Source: Promethearchaeota archaeon
Lineage (GTDB): Archaea > Asgardarchaeota > Lokiarchaeia > Sigyniarchaeales > SOKP01
Assembly: GCA_019058015.1 (NCBI GenBank)
Contig: JAHLWH010000197.1
Location: 1 to 26,420 of the forward strand
Length of the DNA stretch: 26,420 nucleotides
Direction: 5' to 3'
Shown: piece after piece, positions 891-26,420 of the stretch
How the letters are laid out: each line of letters starts with the position of its first letter
Position numbering within the stretch: the stretch's first letter is position 1
The notes under the pieces: generated by a model
The model's input: only the letters and a program-made list of their open reading frames with translations
The model's database searches: none
Told to the model about the DNA's origin: nothing
Translations under genes and position numbers: made by a program

Positions 891-1682
891 ATGAAACGCG
901 ACCAAGAACTCATTGAACGACTTCAAAGGCATAACATTAAGGGAGTTATATTTGATTTTGATGGAGTGCTCCTTGACGTTAGAGAACCTCTAAATGAAGC
1001 AGTTGATAAGGTTTTCAATAAGCGCTCTATTAATGTAAACATGGATGTTGCATTACAACAAATCGGTGCAGTTTTAGAATCAGTTCAAGGATATCCAATG
1101 TCCCAAATAATACTCCAATCTTACCAAATGTTCAAATACGTTACCGTGCTTGAAAATTACCGGTTATTTAAAAAATTAAGGATTGCAATAGAAATTTTTG
1201 CTAAATATCAAGAATATTCAAAAGAAGCAAAATTCCATTTAGGCTCAAAATTACTATTAGAAACTCTCTCAAAACATTGTGATTTATTCATTATTTCACA
1301 TAATATTACAGAAAGTATCTTACGCCATTTAAAGCGGGAAGAACTTGAAGGTTTCTTTTTAGATATTTACGGTCAAGATAAGCTCCCAGCACTAAAACCA
1401 GACCCTGCAAGTGTTGAACCTCCCCTGAATCATTACAAGTCCTACAACAAAGAGGATTTTATTATTATTGGAGATATGCCTTCAGATATTGAAGCAGGTA
1501 AAAAAGCAGGTTTCTGGACAATAGGAGTATCGAGTGGTCTTTGTACAAGGGAACTTTTAGCTGATTACGAGCCAGATTTACTATTAGAATCAATAGCTGA
1601 TATCCTTTCTTTACTTGGAGTCGATAATGGTCGCATTACTAAATCTCAAGCTCATAAAAAGTTAAAAACAGAATCATTATGA
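891..1682 (+). CDS. HAD-superfamily phosphatase (phosphoglycolate phosphatase-like, subfamily IA)
   Basis: Motif I IFDFDGVL, motif II IISHN, motif III KPDP, motif IV IGDMPSDIEAG. Confidence 0.9.
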   Translation: MKRDQELIERLQRHNIKGVIFDFDGVLLDVREPLNEAVDKVFNKRSINVNMDVALQQIGAVLESVQGYPMSQIILQSYQMFKYVTVLENYRLFKKLRIAIEIFAKYQEYSKEAKFHLGSKLLLETLSKHCDLFIISHNITESILRHLKREELEGFFLDIYGQDKLPALKPDPASVEPPLNHYKSYNKEDFIIIGDMPSDIEAGKKAGFWTIGVSSGLCTRELLADYEPDLLLESIADILSLLGVDNGRITKSQAHKKLKTESL

Positions 1683-1693
1683 GGTAATAAAAA

Positions 1694-3373
1694 ATGGAAA
1701 TGGAAGAAATCGATCTCGAAAGTTTGTCTATACAAACAACTAAAACAGAAGAATTTAAAGAGGAGAAGAAACATGTTTCCGGTGCTTCAAAACAATTTCA
1801 AGAAATACTGAATTTTATCTTAAAATACAATCCGATTGATCCTCTAAACAGACTTGTTAGGAAATTTTTCGGCACATTTGACCTACTAGATAAAACGGAT
1901 AGACTGTTTTATTGGGGCGCATTTCCAATAATTCGGAATATTGCTCGAATATATTGGGATCTGCGAGTTGAAGGTGAAATGTTTCCAGATTATGGAGGTG
2001 GAATAGTTGCATCAAACCATGTTTCACATTTGGATCCTTTCTTTGTTAGTTCATCCATCCAAAGACGAACTCGTTGGATGAGTAAAATTGAGAATTTTGA
2101 AACACCATTAGTTACCACACTCTTTACAAATCTTGGGGCTTTCCCATTACATCGTGGGGAAAAAGATATAAAAGCTTATAACACAGCAAAAAAAATTATT
2201 CTAGATGGGGAATATTTAGGTATGTTTCCAGAAGGAACTCGTTCATATGATGGTATTCTCAAAGAAGAATTTCATACAGGTACAGTTCGATTAGCGGTAG
2301 AAACAGGTTGTCCAATTGTTCCAGCTTGTGTATTAGGGACTTCTGGTGCTTTGGCTAAGGGTAAATTATTAATGAAACCTACACGAGTGCTTGTTCGCAT
2401 TGGAAAACCAATTTATTACACTGATTATTATGGAAAAGAACTCAGCTATCCAGATGCTAGGAAATTATCGGATGAACTTAGAGAAAAAATCAAAAATTTA
2501 ATTGAAATGGGGTATAGCAAGGGATCAAAGAAAGATCCTGAGCTCTCGCTTTCTATAGATTCTCCATCAGATATGGAAAGATTACAAAAATATGATGCAT
2601 TAAATAGTCTGTTAAAACCCAAATCTACTGGTAAAAAAATTCTAAAATTAATCGATGATACATGGTATGGATTTTTGAGAGCTTTAGAAGTGTTTGATTT
2701 ACGAACACACTTTCAAGAAGCAATACAAATGTTTTCTGGAAATCTCGTGCATCAGTTGTGCAATACTTTAATTCCATATAAAACCATCGACTTCGACAAG
2801 TATATTCCAAAAGAAGGAGGCGCCGTGATCGCTCCAAGCCATAATTCTGAATGGGATGTGATCATTATTGCTTCAGCGATTACAATAAAACCAAAACGAA
2901 TATTATATCAAATGTCTAAACAATCACTCTTTAGAGTTCCGATTGTAAATGCATGGGTTAGGAATCATCATGCTTTCCCTCTCAAACGAGGTGAGCATGA
3001 TGTAGAGTGTTTTCTTCATGCTAGAGAACTGTTAGAAGCGGAACATCTTGTATGCACATATCCGGAGGGAACCACAAATCCTGGTAATGGCCAACTTTTA
3101 GAAGGTCATACAGGATGTGTTCGATTAGCAATAGACGCAAAAGTTCCAATCATTCCAGTTGGAATTACTGGTACTGAGAATATATACCCTAAACACGCAA
3201 AGATGCTCAATTTCGGAAAAGCGTGTGTATTGAAAGCAGGAGAACCATTTATGGAACACGCAAAATACTGGGATGCACAAGAAATGCCATCATTTGAAGT
3301 GTTAAAAGATTTAACAAGTAAATTGATGGCTCGAATTAAGGATTTACAAGTTTACAACTCACCAGGTCTGTAA
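1694..3373 (+). CDS. plsC: Tandem two-domain lysophospholipid / 1-acyl-glycerol-3-phosphate acyltransferase (PlsC family)
   Basis: Domain 1: SNHVSHLD (HX4D), GAFPLHRG, FPEGTRS, PIVP, GKPI. Domain 2: PSHNSEWD (HX4D), HAFPLKRG, YPEGTT, PIIPVGI, GEPF. SD GAGGT at 1681-1685. Confidence 0.9.
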   Translation: MEMEEIDLESLSIQTTKTEEFKEEKKHVSGASKQFQEILNFILKYNPIDPLNRLVRKFFGTFDLLDKTDRLFYWGAFPIIRNIARIYWDLRVEGEMFPDYGGGIVASNHVSHLDPFFVSSSIQRRTRWMSKIENFETPLVTTLFTNLGAFPLHRGEKDIKAYNTAKKIILDGEYLGMFPEGTRSYDGILKEEFHTGTVRLAVETGCPIVPACVLGTSGALAKGKLLMKPTRVLVRIGKPIYYTDYYGKELSYPDARKLSDELREKIKNLIEMGYSKGSKKDPELSLSIDSPSDMERLQKYDALNSLLKPKSTGKKILKLIDDTWYGFLRALEVFDLRTHFQEAIQMFSGNLVHQLCNTLIPYKTIDFDKYIPKEGGAVIAPSHNSEWDVIIIASAITIKPKRILYQMSKQSLFRVPIVNAWVRNHHAFPLKRGEHDVECFLHARELLEAEHLVCTYPEGTTNPGNGQLLEGHTGCVRLAIDAKVPIIPVGITGTENIYPKHAKMLNFGKACVLKAGEPFMEHAKYWDAQEMPSFEVLKDLTSKLMARIKDLQVYNSPGL

Positions 3374-3396
3374 TTGTTTCGAGGTTTTCAGCCAGA

Positions 3397-4515
3397 ATGC
3401 AGTCGAAGAAAACGACAAACCAACGAGAACTAAAACATTTAAAAGATGCATTGAAATCTTATCGATATGACAAGAAATCGAAAATTAAAGTGGGCATTCC
3501 CCGAGCTCTTCATTTTTATAGGTTTTTTCCTTTTTGGAAAAAATTATTGGAAGAGTTAGGTTGCGAACTCATACTTAGCCCTCACACTAACAAGCAAATA
3601 GTGGAAGAAGGGGCATTTCAAGGATTTGGGGAACTTTGCTTGCCTGTAAAAGTATATTATGGGCATATGTTATATTTAATTAGAGAGCCTCCCGAATTGG
3701 ATTATGTTTTTGTCCCACGATACGTATCCGAGCGAGTAGAGGGATATTTCTGTCCTAAGTTTTTATCACTCCCTGATGTTATAAGAACCTTGCCAAATAT
3801 CCCCAAAATTTTAACCTTTACTATTAATGTAAAAGAAAATCCAATCTCAAATTCTATCATTTCACTTGCAAAAATACTTGGAAAAGGACAACGTGAAGCT
3901 TTACAGGCATATGAAAAAGCTAAAAAATATCATAAACAATATCAAGACTTCTTAAGAAAAGGGACTCCCGTTGGATATGCATTAAAACTAGTAGAAAAAG
4001 ACAAACCATTTAAAATGCTTAAAAAGAAAACCCCTAAAAATATTAAATTCCTCCTACTTGGGCATGGATATAATATTTTTGATACATTCGTGAATTTAGA
4101 CTTCCAGAAAAAACTAACTAGACATGGAGTAGATGTGCTAACTATTGAAAATTTACCAGAAATTCTATTCAAGGAGCCAGTAATTATTAATAAGCAATTT
4201 AGACCATATTGGCTTCATGAGGACGAGATTTTAGCCGCAATTAGATATTTTCTAGTCCAAGGACGTAAAGAGATCGACGGAGTTATATTTCTAATCAGCT
4301 TTGCATGTGGCCCCGACAGCTTGATAGCTGAGTTAATTATGAGGGATATGAAGGTAATCAGGCTTCCTTTCTTGCAGATAATAATGGATGAACATACAGG
4401 TGAAGCTGGACTGCTTACAAGAATCGAAAGTTTCGTGGAAATGATTAAACGGAAAAAAAGAAAACTAGATGCAATGAAAGAAAAGCAAGATTTAAAAATC
4501 TTTGAAGAAGCATAG
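3397..4515 (+). CDS. Acyl-CoA dehydratase activase-related Fe-S subunit (DUF2229/COG3580-like; resembles the C-terminal reductase part of PlsA)
   Basis: KVGIPRALHFY..FPFWKKLLEELG.ELILSP.TNK, ELCLPVKVYYGH, FCPKF, LLGHGYN, SFACGPDS, DEHTGEAGLLTRIESF. SD GAGGT at 3381-3385. Confidence 0.85.
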   Translation: MQSKKTTNQRELKHLKDALKSYRYDKKSKIKVGIPRALHFYRFFPFWKKLLEELGCELILSPHTNKQIVEEGAFQGFGELCLPVKVYYGHMLYLIREPPELDYVFVPRYVSERVEGYFCPKFLSLPDVIRTLPNIPKILTFTINVKENPISNSIISLAKILGKGQREALQAYEKAKKYHKQYQDFLRKGTPVGYALKLVEKDKPFKMLKKKTPKNIKFLLLGHGYNIFDTFVNLDFQKKLTRHGVDVLTIENLPEILFKEPVIINKQFRPYWLHEDEILAAIRYFLVQGRKEIDGVIFLISFACGPDSLIAELIMRDMKVIRLPFLQIIMDEHTGEAGLLTRIESFVEMIKRKKRKLDAMKEKQDLKIFEEA

Positions 4516-4774
4516 AAAAAAACGAAGGGAAATAAATTTATAAGCAACAAATTTATGGCATTTTAAATTTAAAGCACCGATTTCTAAGAATTCTAAAATT
4601 ATGAAATAATTCATAATTTTTTTATATGATCTTACCTATTTGTATAGAAAGTTATTTGAGAAAATACGTTTGCATTTAAATATTAAAAAACTCGAGAAAA
4701 TTAAGTCTAATAGATATAAACCTTAGAGCTACGGAATCAAAGTATAAAAATAGAAGAGGAGCAATAAGAATTTA

Positions 4775-5965
4775 ATGATAGTATCATTTCCAAATATGGG
4801 GTATAGTTGGCCTGCTTTCAAGACTCTCATTGAGTGTATGGGTGTAAAAGTTGTATTGCCTGACCCCACAAATCGTGAAGCTGTGAAAATCGGAGTCAAA
4901 TACTCTCCTGAATTTGTCTGCTTTCCCTTTAAGCCAACACTTGGAGATTTTGTGAGTGCAATTAAAAAGGGAGCGGATACTTTAGTTATGGCTGTAGATT
5001 GTGGCCCCTGTAGATTTGGATTTTACCATGCTGTTCAAGAACGAATTTTACATGACATGGGATATAAAGATGTTCGTGTGATACCTCTTGACCAAGCAGA
5101 CTTATTAGAATTTAAATGGGTAAAAACTCTATTTGAAGTAACTCCAACAAAAAATTTATTTCTATATACAAAAGCTGTTAAAGCAGTTCAATATTTTATA
5201 AAAAAAACAAAATATATTGAAGATATATCGACTGCAGAGGGATTAATCCGATGCTATGAACGAAATAAGGGGGATACAACTCGAGTTGTAAAGAAATTGC
5301 TAATAAAGCTTGATGAGACCAATAAAATAAATGAATTGCGCAAATTCAAATCTGTTATCACAAATGAGTTTAAAAAAATTGATATAGACCGAAGTCGCAA
5401 CCCTTTAAAAGTAGCACTATCAGGAGAGATCCATATCACATTAGAGCCTTATGATAATCTTGATATTCGTCGAAAATTGGGTGAAATGGGAGTTCAATTA
5501 TATCAAAATCTAAGTGTTTACGATTGGGTTATTCATAAATTTCATTTAAATTTTCATAGAAAATGGTTGGAATATTTAGCTCGTCCTTATATGCCAATGG
5601 ATATCGGTGGGGAGGCTATATGGGTTATTGGCGAATATATTGATAGAGCAAGGTCTGGCTTCGATGGTTTCATCCATGCATATCCTTTCACTTGTATGCC
5701 TGAAATCTCAGCTAGAACAATATTGACAAATGTTCTTTATAAAAAATATGATTTACCAATAATTTTCTTCTCATTTGATGAACATGCTGCTGAAAGTGGC
5801 TTCAGAACACGTTTAGAAGCATTTGTAGATTTAATTCAAGGAAGACGAGAGAAAAAGAAACATGAGAAGGAGACTAAATTAGAAAAGAAATTAAAGGAGC
5901 CCTCATATGAGATTCATGGGGGTAGCTTATATAATTCTGTAGTTCAATTTATTCAAGCTGGATAG
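4775..5965 (+). CDS. 2-hydroxyacyl-CoA dehydratase-like Fe-S subunit (COG3581 'CoA protein activase' / PlsR-like)
   Basis: SFPNMG, GVKYSPEFVCFPFK, CGPCRFGFY, KVALSGEI, IGGEA, PFTCMPE, FDEHAAESGFRTRLEAFVD. SD GAGGAG at 4756-4761. Confidence 0.85.
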   Translation: MIVSFPNMGYSWPAFKTLIECMGVKVVLPDPTNREAVKIGVKYSPEFVCFPFKPTLGDFVSAIKKGADTLVMAVDCGPCRFGFYHAVQERILHDMGYKDVRVIPLDQADLLEFKWVKTLFEVTPTKNLFLYTKAVKAVQYFIKKTKYIEDISTAEGLIRCYERNKGDTTRVVKKLLIKLDETNKINELRKFKSVITNEFKKIDIDRSRNPLKVALSGEIHITLEPYDNLDIRRKLGEMGVQLYQNLSVYDWVIHKFHLNFHRKWLEYLARPYMPMDIGGEAIWVIGEYIDRARSGFDGFIHAYPFTCMPEISARTILTNVLYKKYDLPIIFFSFDEHAAESGFRTRLEAFVDLIQGRREKKKHEKETKLEKKLKEPSYEIHGGSLYNSVVQFIQAG

Positions 5966-5978
5966 GTGTTTATAAAAT

Positions 5979-7007
5979 ATGGTTCAAGTTAACGAAAAAA
6001 TACACGTGCCAAAAGATGGAAAACGCAATAGCTATCTAGGTATAGATGTCGGGTCAGTTACCCTCAAATTTGTATTAATGGATAATGATCAAAGGGTTTT
6101 ATCTCAAGTTTTTTTGCGAAATCAAGGCAGTCCAATAGATTCCGTCAAACTTGGAATGGCAGAAATGAGAAGTCAAATTGAGAAAAATCCAGAGCTGCAG
6201 GAATATGCAATAAGAGCATGTGGTACTACTGGATCTGCAAGATATTTAACTAAGGCGGTGGTTGGAGGAGATCTTGCTAAAACAGAAATAATCGCACATG
6301 CTGTGGCAACTCAGTCGTTGTATCCAGATGTAAGAACCATTTTGGAAATTGGGGGCCAGGACTCAAAGATAATTATTCTCAGGGATGGAATCATTGTAGA
6401 CTTCGCTATGAATAGTGTATGTGCAGCTGGAACTGGTAGTTTTCTCGATCACCAAGCAACACGTCTTAATATTCCAATTGAGGATTTTGGCGATTATGCT
6501 GTGAAATCTAAAAATCCTGCTTCAATTGCTGGTCGATGCACGGTGTTTGCAGAATCAGACATGATTCACAAGCAAAATGCTGGATATTCAAAGGAGGATA
6601 TTATTGCTGGGTTATGCGACTCTTTAGTAAGGAATTATTTAAATAATTTGTCAAAAGGAAAAGATTTAGAAGAGCCTATTGTATTTCAAGGAGGAGTTTC
6701 ATTTAATAAGGGGATTATTCAAGCTTTTAAAAAACATTTAGACCGTAAAATAACTGTTCCTAAAAATGGTCTTAATGTACTCATGGGCGCGCTTGGAATG
6801 GCAATTCTTTCACGAGAATATTATATAAATAATGAAATTGATACAGTATTTAGAGGGCTTAGAATGACTGATATTGATTTTAGGACGAGAACGTTCAATT
6901 GTGGGGATTGCCCTAATAATTGCTCTATAGTAGAATGCTCCATCGTTGAGAATAATGAAGTTATTGCCAGATGGGGGTCAAGGTGCGGCAAATGGGAGGT
7001 GTTTTAG
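5979..7007 (+). CDS. ATP-dependent [4Fe-4S] dehydratase activase (BcrAD/BadFG/HgdC ASKHA family) with a C-terminal CxxCxxxC...RC extension
   Basis: LGIDVGSVTLK, GTTGSAR, EIIAH, EIGGQDSK, MNSVCAAGTGSFL, IAGRCTVFAESD, FQGGV. C-terminus FNCGDCPNNC...WGSRCGKW. SD AGGTG at 5964-5968. Confidence 0.92.
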   Translation: MVQVNEKIHVPKDGKRNSYLGIDVGSVTLKFVLMDNDQRVLSQVFLRNQGSPIDSVKLGMAEMRSQIEKNPELQEYAIRACGTTGSARYLTKAVVGGDLAKTEIIAHAVATQSLYPDVRTILEIGGQDSKIIILRDGIIVDFAMNSVCAAGTGSFLDHQATRLNIPIEDFGDYAVKSKNPASIAGRCTVFAESDMIHKQNAGYSKEDIIAGLCDSLVRNYLNNLSKGKDLEEPIVFQGGVSFNKGIIQAFKKHLDRKITVPKNGLNVLMGALGMAILSREYYINNEIDTVFRGLRMTDIDFRTRTFNCGDCPNNCSIVECSIVENNEVIARWGSRCGKWEVF

Positions 7008-7009
7008 AG

Positions 7010-7204
7010 ATGTCCAAGTTTATTGAGCAATTATTTAACATGGGAAAGGAATATTTAGACACTTTAAAGCATAAGACAAAATTATCGACCATATTTGATT
7101 ATTTTACGGAAACGGTGATACCGAATTTTGTATCCGAGAAAGATTTAAAATCATTTTATGAAAAACGTATGAACGAATTAAATGAACTTATATACAAACT
7201 TTAA
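7010..7204 (+). CDS. Small (64 aa) hypothetical helical protein within the lipid cluster
   Basis: ATG at 7010, 2 nt after the activase stop, preceded by a strong SD GGAGGTG at 6995-7001. Translation MSKFIEQLFNMGKEYLDTLKHKTKLSTIFDYFTETVIPNFVSEKDLKSFYEKRMNELNELIYKL. Confidence 0.65.
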   Translation: MSKFIEQLFNMGKEYLDTLKHKTKLSTIFDYFTETVIPNFVSEKDLKSFYEKRMNELNELIYKL

Positions 7205-7259
7205 AGGATGAAAAAAGGCTTTTAGATTAGAAAAAAATTATAAAAAGAGGTAAAGAAAT

Positions 7260-8039
7260 ATGGAATCAAATATTGATAAAAAATCGGAAATTACCATAGT
7301 TGATAAATCGGTTTCTCTTGAAGAAGAAAAGGAGCCAGAGAAAGTGAATATGAAGGCGGTGGCTGGTGATTTACTTTATGGGGCTTTAAAATATATTGGC
7401 GGTTCTGCGTTAATGCTATTTAACGATTTAACAATTAATGGGAATGAGAATATTCCGTTGTTCGGGAAAGCAATTCTTACAACAATTAGTAAAAATGTAA
7501 TGCTTGATATGCTTATTATAAGTCAAGTGTCTGGGAGAAAGATACATTTTATGTTACACCCAAAACTCATAAAAAATCCTGTTGCTGGGCCAGTTTTAAA
7601 GATGTTAGGAATGTTTCGAAGTACAGAGAATAAGGAAGATATAGAACCGGTAGAAAAGGTTTTTGATTATTTAAACAAAAAGGGTGATCTTGTAGCGATG
7701 ACGCCTGAGGCAAAATTAACTGACGAAGTGCAACTCAAGTCAATAGCAGCTATTATAAAGTTTGCAGTTGCTGCTGATGCGCCAATTATTCCGATTGCAA
7801 TATACACCGAACAAAAGACCCTATTTAACATTATTCCTAGTACTAGGCTAAAAATGAAGATTGGTACTCCAATTAATTTCGATAAAAAATTGAATAAGGA
7901 TAAATTTAGAGACGAAAGATATAAACAGGCAGCGGAAATCATAAAGATCATTGATATTCTTCGACTTGAAGGCAAGGAAGAATCCGAAAGAGAAGAAAGA
8001 GAAAGAGAAAAAGAAAAAGAAGAAAAGAAAAATCAGTAA
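7260..8039 (+). CDS. PlsC-like acyltransferase-fold protein with degenerate catalytic motifs
   Basis: GNENIP, IHFMLHPKLIKNP, LGMFRS, APIIPIAI and KIGTPI match the PlsC scaffold. NHxxxxD reads TISKNVMLD (no His) and FPEGTR reads TPEAKL. SD GAGGT at 7247-7251. Confidence 0.75.
   Translation: MESNIDKKSEITIVDKSVSLEEEKEPEKVNMKAVAGDLLYGALKYIGGSALMLFNDLTINGNENIPLFGKAILTTISKNVMLDMLIISQVSGRKIHFMLHPKLIKNPVAGPVLKMLGMFRSTENKEDIEPVEKVFDYLNKKGDLVAMTPEAKLTDEVQLKSIAAIIKFAVAADAPIIPIAIYTEQKTLFNIIPSTRLKMKIGTPINFDKKLNKDKFRDERYKQAAEIIKIIDILRLEGKEESEREEREREKEKEEKKNQ
7986..8032 (+). repeat. Purine-only low-complexity GAAAGA/GAAAAA tract encoding the charged tail EREEREREKEKEEKK
   Basis: 47 consecutive purines at the 3' end of the PlsC-like gene. 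Confidence 0.7.
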
Positions 8040-9970: not shown

Positions 9971-11101
9971 TTAAATTTTTTTTTTTAAATTATTTGCTTG
10001 TTCTTCGAAATATTTATTAGTGTAAGAAAAAAATTTTGTATATCCTTCACAAAAGTATGTTTTCTCTGGATGTGGATTATCCGGGAAAAATCCATCTTTG
10101 AGACATCCACCGAAACACAATTTTTTCCATTCACATTCCGAGCAATCTTGAGGAAGCTGTTCTTTTTGAAAAGCAAATATAGCATTTCGTTTTTCAATTA
10201 ATTCCGTAAAATTATTATGTAAAATATTCCCTAATTTGTATTTTTCATAGACGAAGAAATCACATGGATAAATATCTCCGTTCCATTCTACAACCATATA
10301 ATTTGCACATTTTTCATCGAGAGCGCAGTATCCTTTTGGATATCCTGAATGACCAGCCAAGGTTGCATCGAAAGTTCTTATTGATGCTTGTCGATTAGAA
10401 TTTATCCACTCATCGTAGAGGTCACATAAAAATTTACCATACTGGGATGCATTAATGCAATAAAATGCTTTTTTTCCAATCTCATCTGCTTCAAGAGCGG
10501 GAATAAACTGTAAGTAATGAAAACCGTTATCAATGAAGAAATTATAAACCTCCCTAACTCGATTAACATTTGCTTTACTTATTACACATAATATATTGAA
10601 TTCTACATTATTTTTTCTTAAGTATTCAGTGGCTTTCATTACTTTTTCCCAAATTGACTTACCGCCAATACTTTTTCTATAACGATCATGGATTTGCTTG
10701 GGTCCATCAAGACTTAAACCAATCAAAAATTGATATTCATTAAAAAATTTTCCCCAATCATCGTTAAGAAGAATTCCATTAGTTTGAAGAGCATTTCCAA
10801 TTACTTGTCCAGACATACCATATTGTTGTTGGAATTCTACAACTTTTTTATAGAAATTAAGCCCAATTAAAGTAGGTTCTCCGCCTTGCCAATTGAAAAC
10901 AGATTCATTAAAACGATATTGCAAGAATTTTGATATTATTCTTTCAAGAACTTTATAATCAATACGAGGGTGTGCATTATCTGAATATAAATCAGCTACT
11001 CTCAAATAAAAACAGTATTTACATCTTAGATTACAATCAAAAGAAACTGGTTTAATTAAAAGTTGGAAAGGTTCCATTATTGATTTAGGTTTTAAATTCA
11101 A
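9971..11101 (-). CDS. Anaerobic sulfatase maturase-type radical SAM/SPASM protein
   Basis: IKPVSFDCNLRCKYCFY, WQGGEPTL, LQTNG, GLSLDGP, QFIP. SPASM CALDEKC...GDIYPCD...CSEC....CFGGC...YFC. Confidence 0.9.
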   Translation of the reverse strand: MNLKPKSIMEPFQLLIKPVSFDCNLRCKYCFYLRVADLYSDNAHPRIDYKVLERIISKFLQYRFNESVFNWQGGEPTLIGLNFYKKVVEFQQQYGMSGQVIGNALQTNGILLNDDWGKFFNEYQFLIGLSLDGPKQIHDRYRKSIGGKSIWEKVMKATEYLRKNNVEFNILCVISKANVNRVREVYNFFIDNGFHYLQFIPALEADEIGKKAFYCINASQYGKFLCDLYDEWINSNRQASIRTFDATLAGHSGYPKGYCALDEKCANYMVVEWNGDIYPCDFFVYEKYKLGNILHNNFTELIEKRNAIFAFQKEQLPQDCSECEWKKLCFGGCLKDGFFPDNPHPEKTYFCEGYTKFFSYTNKYFEEQANNLKKKI

Positions 11102-14534: not shown

Positions 14535-14933
14535 TTATGCTTTAAATTGTAAAAGAATAGGTTTCATTTGTTCGTACTTCATTGCACCTTCAACTTTTTT
14601 AATTATATTTCCGCCCTTTATAAATAATGTTGTGGGAACTGCACTAATTCCAAAATTTATCGCAATATCTCGAGCCTCATCGACATCAACTTTCGTAAAA
14701 ATAAAATCCATTTTAAATTCTTTTTGAAGTTGTTCAAAAATAGGGGAAAACCATTTGCATGGACCACACCAGACAGCAGAACAATCAATAATAACTATTT
14801 TATTCGGATATTGGTTAAACACCTTGGATAATTCTTGATAATTTTTAAGATGTAAAACGTCATTTGGCATTTTAAGCATTTTTTTCAATAGTTCTTCCTT
14901 CTTTTTACGAATATCATCTAATTCTTTATCCAT
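14535..14933 (-). CDS. trxA: Thioredoxin
   Basis: AVWCGPCK, KVDVDE, ISAVPT (cis-Pro), with an archaeal-type N-terminal helix MDKELDDIRKKK. Confidence 0.95.
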   Translation of the reverse strand: MDKELDDIRKKKEELLKKMLKMPNDVLHLKNYQELSKVFNQYPNKIVIIDCSAVWCGPCKWFSPIFEQLQKEFKMDFIFTKVDVDEARDIAINFGISAVPTTLFIKGGNIIKKVEGAMKYEQMKPILLQFKA

Positions 14934-19688: not shown

Positions 19689-21002
19689 ATGACAACCCAA
19701 GTGTATATAGCTAAGGAAGGAAAAATTTCGGAAGAAATGAAGATTGTTGCAAAAAAAGAAGGGGTCGACGCTGAATTTATCAGAAATGGATTGAAACATG
19801 GACGAATAATAATACCAAAGTCTAATGTGCGAGAGATTGAGCCAATTGGGATTGGAAAAGGCTTATTGGTTAAAATTAATGCAAATATTGGTTCAAGTAA
19901 AACTGTTTGTAATATTGATAATGAATTAGATAAGGCGAAAATAGCTGTGAAATACGGGGCAGATACTGTGATGGATTTGAGTACAGGTGTTACAGAGCAA
20001 GATTTAAAAACCATTAGAAGAAATATTTTGAGGATAATAAAAGTTCCTATCGGAACAGTCCCAATATACCAAGTAGCGTTAAGAAGTTTGGAGAGAGACG
20101 GGGCAATCATAGATATGACAGAAGATGATATGTTTAATGTAGTAGAAGAACAAGCAAAAGAAGGTGTAGATTTCTTCACAATTCATGCTGGCGTAACTAA
20201 AGAAATTGTGGAGTATCTAAAAGATTATCCAAGAATGATGGGGATAGTTTCAAGAGGAGGCACTTTCTTAGCTGCTTGGATAATACATCACGATTTAGAA
20301 AATCCATATTTCAAGAATTTCGATTATTTACTTGAAATGGCAAAAGAATACGATTTCTCATTAAGCCTTGGAGATGGTTGCAGACCTGGAAGTATTTTTG
20401 ATTCGACTGACTATTCCCAAATACAAGAATTATTAATTATTTCAAAATTGGTCAAAAGATGCTGGGATAATAATGTGCAAGTTATGGTTGAAGGTCCTGG
20501 TCATATTCCAGCTCATGAGATTGAACGGAATGTAAAACTCCAAAAATCAATATGTAATGAAGCCCCTTTTTATGTTTTAGGTCCCTTAGTTACCGATATT
20601 GCTCCAGGTTATGATGATATTGTAAGTGCAATTGGTGGAACCATTGCTGGATTAGCCGGAGCTGATTATTTATGTTATGTTACTCCATCAGAACATTTAG
20701 GCCTTCCAAATATTGATGAGGTTAAGCGAGGTGTTATATCATCAAAAATTGCAGCACATGCTGTAAATATTGCGAGATATGGAAAACGAGCTAGCTGGTG
20801 GGATGAAAAAATGGATAAAGCCCGGAAAGATTTAAATTGGAAAGAAATGATAAAATTAGCAATTGATCCAGAAACTGCTAAAAAAATTCATTATCGAGCA
20901 GGAACTGAAATTGATAATGAACCTTGCTCAATGTGTGGAGAATTTTGTTCTATAAAAATTTTAGAAGAAGCCTTAAAAAAATCTAAAAAGAAAAATGATT
21001 AG
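19689..21002 (+). CDS. thiC: Phosphomethylpyrimidine synthase ThiC
   Basis: KINANIG, GADTVMDLST, IGTVPIYQ, TIHAG, SRGG, SLGDGCRPG, EGPGH, GYDDI, YVTPSEHL, C-terminal CSMCGEFC. Confidence 0.9.
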   Translation: MTTQVYIAKEGKISEEMKIVAKKEGVDAEFIRNGLKHGRIIIPKSNVREIEPIGIGKGLLVKINANIGSSKTVCNIDNELDKAKIAVKYGADTVMDLSTGVTEQDLKTIRRNILRIIKVPIGTVPIYQVALRSLERDGAIIDMTEDDMFNVVEEQAKEGVDFFTIHAGVTKEIVEYLKDYPRMMGIVSRGGTFLAAWIIHHDLENPYFKNFDYLLEMAKEYDFSLSLGDGCRPGSIFDSTDYSQIQELLIISKLVKRCWDNNVQVMVEGPGHIPAHEIERNVKLQKSICNEAPFYVLGPLVTDIAPGYDDIVSAIGGTIAGLAGADYLCYVTPSEHLGLPNIDEVKRGVISSKIAAHAVNIARYGKRASWWDEKMDKARKDLNWKEMIKLAIDPETAKKIHYRAGTEIDNEPCSMCGEFCSIKILEEALKKSKKKND

Positions 21003-23163: not shown

Positions 23164-24687
23164 TCACTTATAATTCAACAGAGATTTTCCTACAACGCTC
23201 CAATGCGGTTTAATACCTAACAAATCTAATAAGGTTGGAACAATATCCGTGGTTTTGCAATAAGGAATCTCGAAAGATGGAATTTCAAGAGAACCTCCTA
23301 TAATCAACGGGACTGTCATTGATTTTTTAAGAGCAATGTCATGAGAATATGGATAAGTCGCAACTGTCTTACCATGCTCATATCCAAAACCATATTCACC
23401 AATTGTAGAGATCATAATATCACATGCCCGTGGATTTTTAAAATACCGTGGAAGTTGGTCAATGAAGATTGGATAACCAATTTGATTGGTTATTGCTAAC
23501 CATTCGTCAATTGTATGTGCTTTATTATCCAAAAGTTCTTTCACATCCTTGTGATTCTCATATCCAAATAAATCTTCTTTATCAAAAGTGTATTTTGTCT
23601 TTTGATTTTTTCCATGTCCATCATATTCAATTCTACCTTTCATAATTTTTCCAGTCTTTTTATCCCGTCGCTCAAGATGAATTATTCCTCGATCTGGCGT
23701 ATTATTATCATCACGATAATACATTAATTTTACACCTGGAATTTCCCATAAGGTTTCGAATAAATCCAATTTTTTACTCCCTATTCCACTTGGTTCAAAA
23801 TTTCGCATTTGTTTAATAGTAGGATGATGATGCCAAGTATCTCCTCGGAAATTGAAAAATCCGATAGAACCGAATGTTGCGTCAAAATCGCCAACTTCTT
23901 TTTTAGGAACATAAGGTATTAATCCTTTTTTTTGGAAAAAAGGTTCGAGATCATACATATTTTGTGCTTTATAATTGCCATGATCAGAGATAATACAAAT
24001 TGCCGTATCCTCATAATATCCTGTATCTTTAAGTGTGTTAATTAAAGACCCAATATACTCGTCACAACTTAAGACTTCATTAATATAATCTGGATGATCA
24101 AAACCTGCATGGTGCATAAGATCATCTGTTTTTGGTATATATCCTACAGTAATTTTTGGAACTTCCTTAACCGAAAAGAATTTTTCTGGTTTTTGGTAAG
24201 CCTCCTCAATAGTTTTTAATGTTGTTTCTGTATCAAATTTTTTAGGAGTTTGAAAAATCGAACCACGAAATATTACGTTTATTAAACTTAGATAGTTTCC
24301 TTCACCAGCTTGTTCAAAAATTGTTTGAACATTAGGTCCCAAGTCTTTACTAATTTTCCATATTTGACGTCCATCTCCGTAATTACGAATAAAAGGCAAC
24401 TTTTTCCCTTCTGAAGGAGGGTCTGTCCGACTGACCCAATGATAAGTCGGAATACCACTTCCTTCTTTAGGGTAATAACCAGAATAGGCACCAGTCATGA
24501 TATTAGAATAGCAAGGAAAAGTAATGCTCGGAAAAGTTGTAATACAATTCTGACACGAGATTCCATTTTTAGCAAGTTGAGCCATGTTTGGAAGCTTTCC
24601 TTGGTTAATCCATCCATAAAGATGCAAAGCCCTAACATCATCAATAACAATTAAAATTACTTGATTTACTTTAGCAATTCGACTCAT
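23164..24687 (-). CDS. Alkaline phosphatase superfamily, nucleotide pyrophosphatase/phosphodiesterase type
   Basis: ILIVIDDVR, FPSITFP (Thr nucleophile), TDDLMH, ISDHG, SHD, VPLII, DIVPTLL. Confidence 0.88.
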   Translation of the reverse strand: MSRIAKVNQVILIVIDDVRALHLYGWINQGKLPNMAQLAKNGISCQNCITTFPSITFPCYSNIMTGAYSGYYPKEGSGIPTYHWVSRTDPPSEGKKLPFIRNYGDGRQIWKISKDLGPNVQTIFEQAGEGNYLSLINVIFRGSIFQTPKKFDTETTLKTIEEAYQKPEKFFSVKEVPKITVGYIPKTDDLMHHAGFDHPDYINEVLSCDEYIGSLINTLKDTGYYEDTAICIISDHGNYKAQNMYDLEPFFQKKGLIPYVPKKEVGDFDATFGSIGFFNFRGDTWHHHPTIKQMRNFEPSGIGSKKLDLFETLWEIPGVKLMYYRDDNNTPDRGIIHLERRDKKTGKIMKGRIEYDGHGKNQKTKYTFDKEDLFGYENHKDVKELLDNKAHTIDEWLAITNQIGYPIFIDQLPRYFKNPRACDIMISTIGEYGFGYEHGKTVATYPYSHDIALKKSMTVPLIIGGSLEIPSFEIPYCKTTDIVPTLLDLLGIKPHWSVVGKSLLNYK

Positions 24688-24825: not shown

Positions 24826-25698
24826 TTAAACGATAACGTAAGAAAGTTTAAATCCCTCATCTTCCTTAAGATTTAATACTCTTCTAACGGCATTTCTAAC
24901 TAATATACCGCCTATATGAAGGATTGTATCCTTTAATATATTATCTTGATCCATAGAGGCATTACAAGGATATGAGTGATGGGCTTTACTAATACGTTCA
25001 TTTAGGGAAAGCTCTTTATCATTGATTTCTTTTGATTTTAATTGTTGGTCAATATAATAAGTAGAACCGCATGGAGCGGATTGTATTACGCATGCATCTT
25101 CAATTGTTTTTCCATCTTTACTTATTAAAAAAGATACAATCGGCTCTCCAATCTTAAAATAATCAATAAATTCATCAATATTAGAACCTTCTTGGGTTAC
25201 ATTAAAACCGGGTCTATTTATTTCATTTACTTCTTTACTCAAGGAACAGAATGGTTTTGGAAATGCTGCTTGAATTCCGAATTTTTCAAATTCTTCTAAT
25301 ACTTGTTTTTGAAGTCCTGGAGACACCCATTTTGGATCTTCGATTGGAATAATAACTGCCTTTATATTTTGATCTTTTAAATATTCCGGAAGTCCAGTTA
25401 ATAGGTCTGGATGAATTCCAACTACTAAAAGGAAATCCACTTCAGGAAGATTTTTAGGAAAAAATTCCAGTGGTTCTTCAACAAATTCAGGAAGATTTTC
25501 GCCGATTTGTTCATAAAAGTAAATTGAATCTGCGTAACTTTTTAAGTGTTCTCGACAATGATCACATTTTATTTTTACTTCCATTTCCTCGCAAGCTTCA
25601 CAAAATTTGTCATCATTAATCAAATTACCTACAAATTTTTGAGTTAACATCTCTGTGTCTGAATCGGTTCCATAGAAAATTCCCAGTTTATATACCAA
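24826..25698 (-). CDS. DUF166 family Cys/His-rich protein
   Basis: FVGNL, CEAC...CDHCR, IHPDL, PKPFCSL, QSAPCGSTYY, HHSYPCNASM, ILH. Confidence 0.78.
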   Translation of the reverse strand: MVYKLGIFYGTDSDTEMLTQKFVGNLINDDKFCEACEEMEVKIKCDHCREHLKSYADSIYFYEQIGENLPEFVEEPLEFFPKNLPEVDFLLVVGIHPDLLTGLPEYLKDQNIKAVIIPIEDPKWVSPGLQKQVLEEFEKFGIQAAFPKPFCSLSKEVNEINRPGFNVTQEGSNIDEFIDYFKIGEPIVSFLISKDGKTIEDACVIQSAPCGSTYYIDQQLKSKEINDKELSLNERISKAHHSYPCNASMDQDNILKDTILHIGGILVRNAVRRVLNLKEDEGFKLSYVIV

Positions 25699-25835: not shown

Positions 25836-26420
25836 TCAATTAGATTTTTCTAAATAATTTAATATTTTTTCAATTTTCATAATCATTTCATCTGGGTTTT
25901 TTGCAAAAATTCTCATGATTGGCTCTTTCCCAGTTGCACCTTTATCCCATATAATATCTGGAATTGTTCCATGTTGTTCAAAAACTTTTTTTATTATCCA
26001 CTGCATTGTTGATTCCTCTTTTAAACTATTATTTTCAGGTTGTTTACTTCTATCTATTTCCGCAATCTTAAAAAATGAGTCGTTTTCTAATTTTTGTATT
26101 AAATCTGGAACATATTTCATATTAATTACAATGTTTAGTGAATTGTCAAATTTTTTAGTGGTTAATATCAATCTTGCAGTATGATCAGATACACCAAATT
26201 TTATTTTTCCTATGGCTTTAGGATACCCCTTAATGATACTAATTCGCCCTTCAATCGCAGCAACGTCAATTTTCGATTGTGCATTAGGTAAAGATACAGA
26301 GATATTTGTTCTAACTTCTGGAATTAATCTTGAGAATTTTTTTGAACTTGAAATAAAATTATAAATTTCTTTTACTTGATTTAAAACTGCTTTTTTTTCT
26401 GGTGAATAATCCAATGTAAG
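25836..26420 (-). CDS. thiN: Thiamine-phosphate synthase ThiN domain, partial (probably the C-terminal half of a ThiDN fusion or a ThiR)
   Basis: LIPEVRTNI, VAAIEGRI, FGVSDHTAR, INMKY, STMQW, PDIIWDKGATGKEPIMRIF. The frame stays open to the window edge (CTT ACA TTG GAT). Confidence 0.87.
   Translation of the reverse strand, partial: LTLDYSPEKKAVLNQVKEIYNFISSSKKFSRLIPEVRTNISVSLPNAQSKIDVAAIEGRISIIKGYPKAIGKIKFGVSDHTARLILTTKKFDNSLNIVINMKYVPDLIQKLENDSFFKIAEIDRSKQPENNSLKEESTMQWIIKKVFEQHGTIPDIIWDKGATGKEPIMRIFAKNPDEMIMKIEKILNYLEKSN

Follow-up and report, generated by a model that had tools for sequence, protein, structure and literature searches.

Described ester-to-ether enzymes and a related archaeal locus

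To our knowledge, the plasmalogen synthase PlsA and the glycerol ester reductase Ger are the only enzymes known to convert glycerol esters to ethers anaerobically, and they are also the only characterised DUF2229 enzymes that our literature search found. Both work on preformed ester lipids (for Ger, PMC13159169). The same paper describes Ger of Thermotoga maritima by the domain string BBDHDDH (a pair of activase domains followed by a single DUF2229 and a mixed D/H tail) and has the BBD core kept in all known alkyl-ether producers. According to PMC12838417, PlsA/PlsR consists of Act1-Act2-Red1 plus Red2, encoded either as a two-gene plsA-plsR operon or as a single open reading frame (ORF); Red1 and Red2 are split in Clostridium perfringens, and single-ORF PlsA occurs in Enterococcus, Lactococcus and Bifidobacterium. 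Here we describe a seven-gene locus at positions 891-8039 of a 26,420-nt stretch from a Promethearchaeota archaeon (assembly GCA_019058015.1, contig JAHLWH010000197.1), in which apparent split counterparts of these parts stand among acyltransferase genes. The whole stretch is called the window below; G and L numbers denote genomes and loci, G000 being the source assembly. All seven genes lie on the + strand, run in one direction and are closely spaced (aa, amino acids):

891-1682, + strand: HAD phosphatase, 263 aa, first gene (Pfam HAD_2)
1694-3373, + strand: PlsC2x, fused double PlsC/LPLAT-type acyltransferase, 559 aa, two PF01553 domains
3397-4515, + strand: D1, DUF2229 'Red1-like' iron-sulfur subunit, 372 aa
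4516-4774, no strand: D1-D2 spacer, A/T-rich, 259 bp, insertion point of extra genes in other genera
4775-5965, + strand: D2, 'Red2/PlsR-like' paralogue of D1, 396 aa
5979-7007, + strand: ACT, single-domain ATP-dependent activase with a C-terminal 4-Cys extension, 342 aa
7010-7204, + strand: conserved 64-aa protein, beginning 2 bp after ACT
7260-8039, + strand: PlsCl, PlsC-fold protein without the catalytic His, 259 aa

We put the chance that this locus carries out ester-to-ether reduction of a PlsC-made glycerolipid at about even (roughly 0.5). The ester on the PlsC2x glycerolipid is the likely substrate in this scheme because the characterised DUF2229 enzymes reduce glycerol-bound acyl esters, and because no genome of the family sampled had the reductase without the PlsC module. 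What was observed, as set out in the following sections, is the gene content, the homology and the conservation of motifs and linkage.

PlsC and PlsY in Lokiarchaeota have already been published and have long been cited as a hint of bacterial-type lipids in the archaeal ancestors of eukaryotes (PMC6737245 and PMC6431249). In our literature search, which covered PMC13159169 up to its supplements, we found no description of the operon, of a fused double PlsC or of a split three-gene DUF2229 system in Asgards.

The reductase module

By their domain matches, D1, D2 and ACT belong, as a fully split form, to the DUF2229 branch of the radical-enzyme superfamily that holds the benzoyl-CoA reductases (BCR), the 2-hydroxyacyl-CoA dehydratases and DCCP. 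D1 matched DUF2229 (PF09989) at 155.5 bits against a cut-off of 29.4, and D2 matched an N-terminal piece of it at 37 bits. HGD-D scored under its cut-off of 28.4 bits in both (23.8 at the D1 C-terminus, 19.7 in D2), the matches being confined to the last ~60 residues. Three Cys are invariant in each subunit, namely Cys81, Cys119 and Cys304 of D1 in 101/101 homologues and Cys49, Cys79 and Cys307 of D2 in 74/74. D2 scored 67.8 bits with the D1 hidden Markov model (HMM). On fused proteins of 1350-1460 aa the D1 HMM covered residues ~650-980 and then gave a weak two-piece signal at ~1000-1410, in a D2-like pattern; the D2 HMM aligned with that stretch (~1000-1410) in Act-Act-Red1-Red2 proteins and gave a strong signal over the second half of D1-D2 fusions of ~730 aa. 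Its best domain exceeded 50 bits at ~1000-1410 in 10 of 34 fused proteins and was weaker in the sampled remainder. This mapping places D2 as a paralogue of D1 at the Red2 position, and the existence of natural D1-D2 fusions supports a D1/D2 heterodimer.

ACT matched BcrAD_BadFG at 153.2 bits and TIGR00241 at 192 bits (cut-off 125.4), and its PDB matches were MbdQ (4e-35), HadI (4eht, 1e-33) and HgdC (1hux, 2e-33). Among homologues of 300-400 aa, the only lengths counted, Cys148, Cys187 (39 residues apart) and C308-x2-C311-x3-C315...C336 are invariant in 64/64. We take Cys148 and Cys187 to be the bridging ligands of a [4Fe-4S] cluster, judging by their spacing, which is like that in HgdC. The solved activators HgdC, HadI and MbdQ, of 260-276 aa, align to ACT residues ~20-278 only, and in contrast to activators of the HadI/HgdC type ACT has an extra C-terminal 4-Cys region outside the aligned part. 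Its CxxCxNxC motif was also seen after the second activase domain in 17 fused proteins inspected.

An orthologue of the 64-aa protein stands at the corresponding place in 7 other genomes; identities are 50-92% and 15 residues are invariant. No Pfam or NCBIfam family matched the protein, and a protein atlas search gave no usable match. We considered and rejected an acyl carrier protein, since the Ser of its KLST motif is not invariant and is replaced by R in one orthologue. A complex prediction for D1 (25-365), D2 (1-365), the 64-aa protein and, as the partner, PlsCl (30-240) scored 0.00 in two runs made without controls and carries no weight either way.

The domain set of PlsA/PlsR (BcrAD/BadFG activase, DUF2229 Red1, Red2 paralogue) is thus also that of the locus, and both occur in anaerobes. 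Unlike PlsA/PlsR, the locus enzyme is fully split into three genes, has one stand-alone activase domain rather than two fused ones, shares its operon with genes of the PlsC type and one for a HAD phosphatase, and has a predicted activity. In the case of Ger (T. maritima Tmari_0479; Desulfatibacillum alkenivorans), the 'D-H-D-D-H' region corresponds to D1 plus D2, whereas the single BBDHDDH polypeptide is represented here by three separate genes. The G000 genome yielded no further DUF2229 gene and no fused form. Ger homologues in Asgards were screened at an e-value of 1e-50 or better with query coverage of at least 30% (PMC13159169). Such a coverage requirement would probably miss split proteins, each of which makes up less than 30% of the ~1400-aa query.

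Likeness to the other branches of the superfamily is more general. HadBC/HgdAB, BzdNOPQ and MbdONPQ have the superfamily fold, the ATP-dependent type of activator and three Cys per catalytic subunit in common with the locus; in contrast to them, D1 and D2 stay under the HGD-D cut-off, identity in structural alignments is 12-17%, and the neighbouring genes are for acyltransferases rather than for CoA-transferase or fermentation. The AlphaFold2 model of D1 (pLDDT 91.3) matched DCCP, HadBC, BzdNO and MbdON about equally (TM ~0.5, E 1e-9 to 1e-8). Its top structural match came from the pair DCCP/DCCP-R (6eno, 7yyl), being 7yyl_A at E 7e-10 with 16-17% identity. A weak sequence match to DCCP is present at the D1 C-terminus and both systems rely on an ATP-dependent reductase partner, but the DCCP double cubane uses six Cys whereas D1 has three invariant ones, and the locus system is a heteromer of two paralogues.

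These likenesses bear on the main alternative, in which D1/D2/ACT would act on the acyl donor or on another soluble carbonyl, for example by dehydrating or reducing a substituted acyl-CoA as the 2-hydroxyacyl-CoA dehydratases do, and the PlsC module would esterify the modified chain with no ether being formed. We consider it unlikely. The shared fold and activase would suit it, as solved members use CoA thioesters or small molecules, and so would the 17 AMP-binding ligase genes of G000; set against this are the placement of D1 and D2 in DUF2229 with HGD-D under the Pfam cut-off, the lack of any CoA-transferase family match among the window ORFs scanned, the CxxCxNxC motif that ACT has in common with fused DUF2229 proteins, and the finding that 0 family genomes have the reductase but lack PlsC2x. 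Two further points in its favour, the position of D1 in its family and the surroundings of the bacterial triads, are taken up below.

Acyltransferases and phosphatase

PlsC2x carries two PF01553 domains (176.7 bits in Pfam) and scored 149.9 bits with TIGR00530 of NCBIfam, above the cut-off of 102.95. Both halves keep HX4D and (F/Y)PEGT intact in 16/16 full-length orthologues, one of them with FAEGT. The sole PDB match was PlsC of T. maritima (5kym, 9e-11), and HX4D and PEGT are common to both. In contrast to that bacterial PlsC, PlsC2x comprises two complete domains in 559 aa and has a paralogue without the catalytic His in its operon. Its best 120 relatives are all ~550 aa long and bear the names of Asgard metagenome-assembled genomes (MAGs) wherever they are named, so that among these 120 the fused double form is found in Asgard-named MAGs only.

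PlsCl, the His-less paralogue, matched PF01553 at 39.1 bits and TIGR00530 at 41.3 bits, the latter under the 102.95 cut-off. The HX4D His is replaced by K, D or E, and PEGT by PE[AES]K, in 7/7 orthologues, and PlsCl is probably not an active acyltransferase. A second, separate PlsC gene in another family, f2, likewise lacks the His.

The HAD phosphatase matched HAD_2 at 80.7 bits and has motif I (FDFDG) at residues 21-25. No NCBIfam equivalog cut-off was reached, matches to PpaX and phosphoglycolate phosphatase being sub-threshold, and its PDB matches were generic HAD phosphatases at ~1e-8. Orthologues 42-50% identical to it lie upstream of PlsC2x in relatives.

Conservation of the link between acyltransferase and reductase

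We searched 201 genomes of the phylum with D1 and PlsC2x, and 78 matched D1 at all. The counts below refer mainly to family f1, which comprises 40 genomes besides G000; these are kin, and the counts are hence not independent events. Orthologue-grade D1 (63-70% identity, higher within the genus) was present in 35 of the 40 genomes and a ~555-aa double PlsC in 37: both were found in 35, PlsC2x alone in 2, a D1 orthologue alone in 0 and neither in 3. In 35 of 35 genomes D1 adjoins PlsC2x, with a gap of at most ~550 bp that is mostly a few tens of bp. The order in the 17 regions fetched is HAD-PlsC2x-D1-(insert)-D2-ACT-small-PlsCl, with D2 present in 11 regions, ACT in 8 and the 64-aa gene plus PlsCl in 6; of the six regions that remain, three are cut short by the end of a contig (L037, L044, L048), and in the other three different genes stand at this place.

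The link is also seen beyond f1. In family f2, two of three sampled genomes (L050, L051) hold PlsC, a His-less PlsC, D1, D2 and ACT, and the third, G162 (L054), has D1-D2-ACT without an adjoining PlsC. We also inspected 80 named loci from species-representative genomes, 6 archaeal-titled and 74 non-archaeal. PlsC stands directly upstream of D1 in all 6 archaeal-titled loci, including Promethearchaeota 33X4, CR_4 and a Hermodarchaeota MAG; one of the 6, a MAG titled Woesearchaeota (L068), has the alternative order PlsC-D1-ACT-D2. Linkage to plsC in Asgard relatives, on which the sequence-only reading (an interpretation drawn up earlier from this DNA without database searches) had made its case depend, is thus conserved, both as the 35 of 35 adjoining pairs in f1 and in f2, Hermod and CR_4 MAGs. 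Since the order is kept through one family and into a second, the arrangement is not due to chance.

It could still be asked whether acyltransferase and reductase are two unrelated neighbouring units whose adjacency has no functional meaning. The 259-bp D1-D2 spacer, which may have its own promoter, the insertion of unrelated genes at that spacer in some genomes and the retention of the acyltransferase part alone in two genomes could be read in this way. We think this very improbable in view of D1 following PlsC2x directly in every f1 genome that has both, of PlsCl and the 64-aa gene standing behind ACT in 6 of the 8 f1 regions with ACT, and of the recurrence of the link in f2 and, with its order changed, in L068.

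The two genomes in question (G083 and G171, of f1 and both listed as 100% complete) gave no DUF2229 match and retain HAD-PlsC2x-PlsCl; in them (L160:6342-10621 and L161) a 204-aa ORF with a weak deaminase-family match replaces D1, D2, ACT and the 64-aa gene. These variants indicate that the acyltransferase part can stand alone, that PlsCl belongs to it and that the reductase is an add-on. Such a pattern would be expected of an enzyme that modifies the acyltransferase product, and it fits the use of preformed ester lipids by PlsA and Ger.

Inserts in the D1-D2 spacer were found in L038, L039, L041, L043, L045 and L049. At L039:4607-9401 and L045:1781-6641 (G159 and G113) a second reductase set lies between D1 and D2, in which an 812-837-aa fusion of a VAO-type FAD_binding_4 domain with a D1 paralogue is followed by another ACT and by a D2 paralogue of 441-444 aa. 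The possibility that the flavin domain is alkyl-DHAP-synthase-like was rejected, the best PDB matches being cytokinin dehydrogenases (1.9e-19) and AGPS reaching merely 1e-3. In three genomes a PlsA-like gene (977-985 aa, with DUF2229 and two BcrAD_BadFG domains) also lies in or beside the PlsC cluster, at L045:6975-11335, L042:11960-16328 and L044:10919-15304. It is followed by a 468-474-aa gene, and the single copy of the latter that was scanned, from L045 (469 aa), matched no Pfam family and gave a faint D2-like signal. The extra flavin-fused and PlsA-like reductase paralogues could act on the second position or saturate a vinyl ether.

Proposed pathway and points for and against it

In the scenario we favor, module 1 (HAD, PlsC2x, PlsCl) would build an acyl-glycerol(phosphate) ester and could be fed by the acyl-CoA ligases and PlsY of the genome. 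Module 2 (D1, D2, ACT and the 64-aa protein) would be a reductase with the PlsA/PlsR/Ger parts Act, Red1 and Red2. An ACT homodimer with its [4Fe-4S] bridge at Cys148/Cys187 would accept an electron, possibly through the extra 4-Cys site, and ATP hydrolysis by ACT would then send a very-low-potential electron into the D1/D2 heterodimer. D1/D2 would reduce the acyl carbonyl of an ester on glycerol, the product being an alk-1-enyl or alkyl ether, and the HAD phosphatase would take off a phosphate, either from the backbone or from a head-group intermediate. The scheme of electron injection follows the analogy with HgdC/HadI and BCR, together with statements in PMC12838417. Substrate, product (vinyl or alkyl ether), order of steps, stereochemistry (glycerol-1-phosphate, G1P, or glycerol-3-phosphate, G3P) and all protein-protein contacts are what we infer from these comparisons. 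A broader and more tentative proposal, which we hold to be possible and somewhat doubtful, is de novo synthesis of non-isoprenoid alk(en)yl-ether glycerolipids by Lokiarchaeia and their relatives, with a GPAT/LPAAT-like double PlsC acting first and a three-subunit ATP-driven radical reductase acting after it.

Several results weigh against ester-to-ether reduction at this locus, and the first of them concern the place of D1 in its family. Among 1.84 billion representatives we found 2781 relatives of D1, 426 of them below 1e-30, mostly ~330-aa stand-alone proteins, and the named ones include Omnitrophota, Clostridia and Ca. Hakubella. A tree was built with IQ-TREE in 'quick' mode from 64 hand-picked rows and rooted on D2; of the fused proteins 12 of 32, and of the D1-D2 proteins 8 of 18, were included by random draw. 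'Ger/PlsA-type' is defined in this tree by architecture only, and not by named PlsA, PlsR or Ger sequences. An archaeal D1 clade of 13 rows (SH-aLRT 99) unites the PlsC-linked Loki, Hermod, CR_4, family f2 and L068 sequences and the flavin-fused paralogue, and the whole of it is either PlsC-linked or inserted in a PlsC cluster; its sister is an Omnitrophota sequence (SH-aLRT 99). The Act-Act-Red1(-Red2) proteins form a clade of their own (18 rows, SH-aLRT 90) with D1 outside it, and D1 is just 23-31% identical to them. D1 proteins of other Asgard families make up a third clade (SH-aLRT 100). The backbone of the tree is poorly supported, so the placement of D1 amounts to family membership and falls short of orthology to PlsA or Ger; a FastTree of 198 rows agrees with the local picture. 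The position of D1 outside the clade of fused Ger/PlsA architecture is also one of the points that would favour action on the acyl donor.

A second group of results concerns context. The complete split D1-D2-ACT triad is present in 46 of the 74 non-archaeal loci, with variable neighbours, and a PlsC-like match was obtained in 1 of the 74 (L120, Pfam-confirmed), several genes away; the PlsC-domain HMM used there was made from Asgard sequences and may overlook divergent bacterial PlsC, though it did detect L120. The bacterial triad (L065-L140) occurs in Clostridia, Peptococcaceae, Actinomycetota, Melainabacteria and others. Neighbours at the bacterial loci include GerA germination genes (9), a pyridoxal-phosphate-dependent enzyme (7, plus one 32%-identical match) and a cardiolipin-synthase-like gene with two phospholipase D domains (3, plus one 24%-identical match). 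Other Asgard D1-D2 modules, in families f5 and f27, have no PlsC neighbour. ACT labels at the named and f5/f27 loci come from an HMM (length 953) that included three ~980-aa Act-Act-Red1 proteins. The absence of a consistent lipid context around split-type bacterial members again suits the use of an acyl donor or a soluble substrate.

Further points against ester-to-ether reduction are found at the locus itself: (i) the tandem, fused activase arrangement of the 'BBD' signature of known alkyl-ether producers is not found there; (ii) one of its three acyltransferase domains lacks the catalytic His; (iii) a simple hydropathy scan predicted no transmembrane helix in any of the seven proteins, the two windows above 1.6 both falling in the protein core and one of them spanning a conserved Cys; and (iv) the ether-lipid product at the operon is predicted from genes. 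In addition, published Asgard PlsC together with the Ger homologues already described in Loki- and Heimdallarchaeota (PMC13159169) lowers the novelty of the idea. The cultured Lokiarchaeon MK-D1 has isoprenoid chains only and was reported to lack ester-lipid genes (PMC7015854); given that lack, its isoprenoid-only profile is uninformative on the operon.

The ester-to-ether glycerolipid function had been put forward in the sequence-only reading, and it comes through with mixed fortunes. Conserved PlsC linkage and the one-to-one mapping of the Act, Red1 and Red2 domains uphold both that proposal and the likeness to PlsA/PlsR/Ger on which it drew, but D1 falls outside the fused-architecture clade. 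Three acyltransferase domains had been counted; the two of PlsC2x are intact, but the third, in PlsCl, has lost its catalytic His in all seven orthologues. One outcome named there as refuting, subunits of the HgdAB/benzoyl-CoA-reductase type, did not materialise, D1 and D2 being DUF2229 proteins with HGD-D below the Pfam cut-off.

What can be said already is that PlsC of the Loki type unites two acyltransferases in one protein, and that its conserved operon also encodes a split relative of the ester-to-ether enzymes. This changes the prediction for Asgard lipids, in that alkyl and alkenyl glycerol ethers should be sought besides ester phospholipids. Non-isoprenoid ether lipids in Asgards become a testable idea that bears on the lipid-divide question. 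If the idea is true, the operon would provide a third archaeal route to ether lipids and would give the nearest kin of eukaryotes a natural 'hybrid' membrane component derived from fatty acids. Surveys requiring coverage of the long fused Ger would probably overlook the split form, and there may be gaps in environmental inventories of potential ether-lipid producers, among them the organisms behind non-isoprenoid ether biomarkers of anoxic sediments. Variants of the G083/G171 type, without the reductase module, offer a natural comparison.

Lipid-supply genes and the salvage alternative

Elsewhere in G000 we found a PlsY homologue (103 bits) in a 401-aa membrane protein at G000:C115:3868-5073 on the - strand (locus L159). 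Its PlsY domain takes up residues ~15-189 only; no family matched the hydrophobic C-terminal half. A fourth PF01553 gene, a weak match, lies on a different contig. The genome also has GGGPS, the 17 AMP-binding ligase genes above the Pfam cut-off and 7 FGGY kinase matches, the best of which (259.5 bits) is a possible GlpK. A GpsA-type G3P dehydrogenase was not resolved in G000, the best PF01210 match being an octopine-dehydrogenase-like protein, nor was a G1P dehydrogenase, the best PF13685 match being a general iron-dependent alcohol dehydrogenase.

The lack of a resolved GpsA bears on another alternative, in which ester reduction would proceed as proposed but would serve to salvage or remodel bacterial lipids or lysolipids taken up by scavenging, rather than to make membrane lipids de novo, or would supply a minor ether lipid, neutral or for signalling. 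Such a role would sit well with the presence of GGGPS for normal archaeal lipids, with the lack of transmembrane helices in all seven proteins, with the two relatives (G083, G171) that do without the reductase module, and with the HAD phosphatase, which would yield a neutral product. PlsY and the FGGY kinases make a de novo route from glycerol possible, and retention of the operon in 35 of the 40 f1 genomes, at 63-70% identity for D1, suggests a core role; on balance we regard salvage as improbable.

Host genome

The G000 assembly comprises 3.84 Mb in 283 contigs and is 94% complete. The best model within the rRNA clan for its small-subunit ribosomal RNA pieces is the archaeal one, and the nearest relatives of D1 and PlsC2x come from MAGs named Promethearchaeota, Lokiarchaeota, Thor- or Hermodarchaeota. 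Two further genomes of the genus share synteny with approximately 20 kb around the cluster, on contigs of 342 kb and 272 kb, and these contigs carry Ras-family GTPase genes (6 on G144:C5 and 2 on G040:C51; 64 and 60 matches in the whole genomes). A large Ras-family complement is a hallmark of Asgards. The genome is thus archaeal and Asgard-like, as had been surmised from the window, and a bacterial origin of the contig, which the sequence-only reading had listed among its refuting outcomes, can be set aside.

Layout and expression signals of the operon

In gene order the intergenic gaps are 11, 23, 259, 13, 2 and 55 bp. Shine-Dalgarno (SD)-like GGAGG/GAGGT/GGTG motifs stand 12-19 nt 5' of 6 of the 7 starts, the exception being the HAD gene, which has an A/T-rich TATA-like stretch ~25-35 nt 5' of its start. 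A first gene without SD motif, a TATA-like stretch before it and SD-bearing internal genes are expected of an archaeal operon with a leaderless first cistron, and the seven genes can be read, from these signals, as one such operon. The layout agrees with the sequence-only reading (seven co-oriented genes, six SD sites, gaps of 2-55 bp and one of 259 bp), and Pfam and NCBIfam bear out the gene identities given there (HAD phosphatase, double PlsC, DUF2229-type subunits, activase, 64-aa protein and PlsC-like protein). For the 64-aa gene the start at 7010 is the one kept in orthologues; the ORF list offers a 77-aa frame from 6971.

The D1-D2 spacer is 93-95% identical in three genomes of the genus, on a par with the flanking coding DNA, and there may be an internal promoter in it. 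No Rfam family matched anywhere in the window, the 4516-4774 spacer included. Scans for sigma-70 promoters (39 found, 39.5 expected) and for terminators (4 found, 4.4 expected) were at background, and both are ill-suited to archaea. The G+C content is 0.32-0.38 over the operon (1001-8000) and 0.25-0.34 elsewhere in the window.

Other genes of the window

A radical-SAM/SPASM gene at 9971-11101 (- strand) was considered as a Mss-/Tes-like lipid enzyme and rejected, since TIGR03942 (402 bits, cut-off 349) identifies its product as an anaerobic sulfatase maturase; 12 kb from it, at 23164-24687 (- strand), there is a gene of the sulfatase/phosphodiesterase type. Thiamine genes at the 3' end of the window, at 19689-21002 (+ strand), 24826-25698 (- strand) and 25836-26414 (- strand), encode ThiC (616 bits), a DUF166 protein and a ThiN-type thiamine-phosphate synthase; Rfam gave no thiamine pyrophosphate riboswitch in the window. 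At 14535-14933 (- strand) there is a gene for a 132-aa thioredoxin with a weak match, below the cut-off, to the eukaryotic OST3/OST6 family (E 7e-5).

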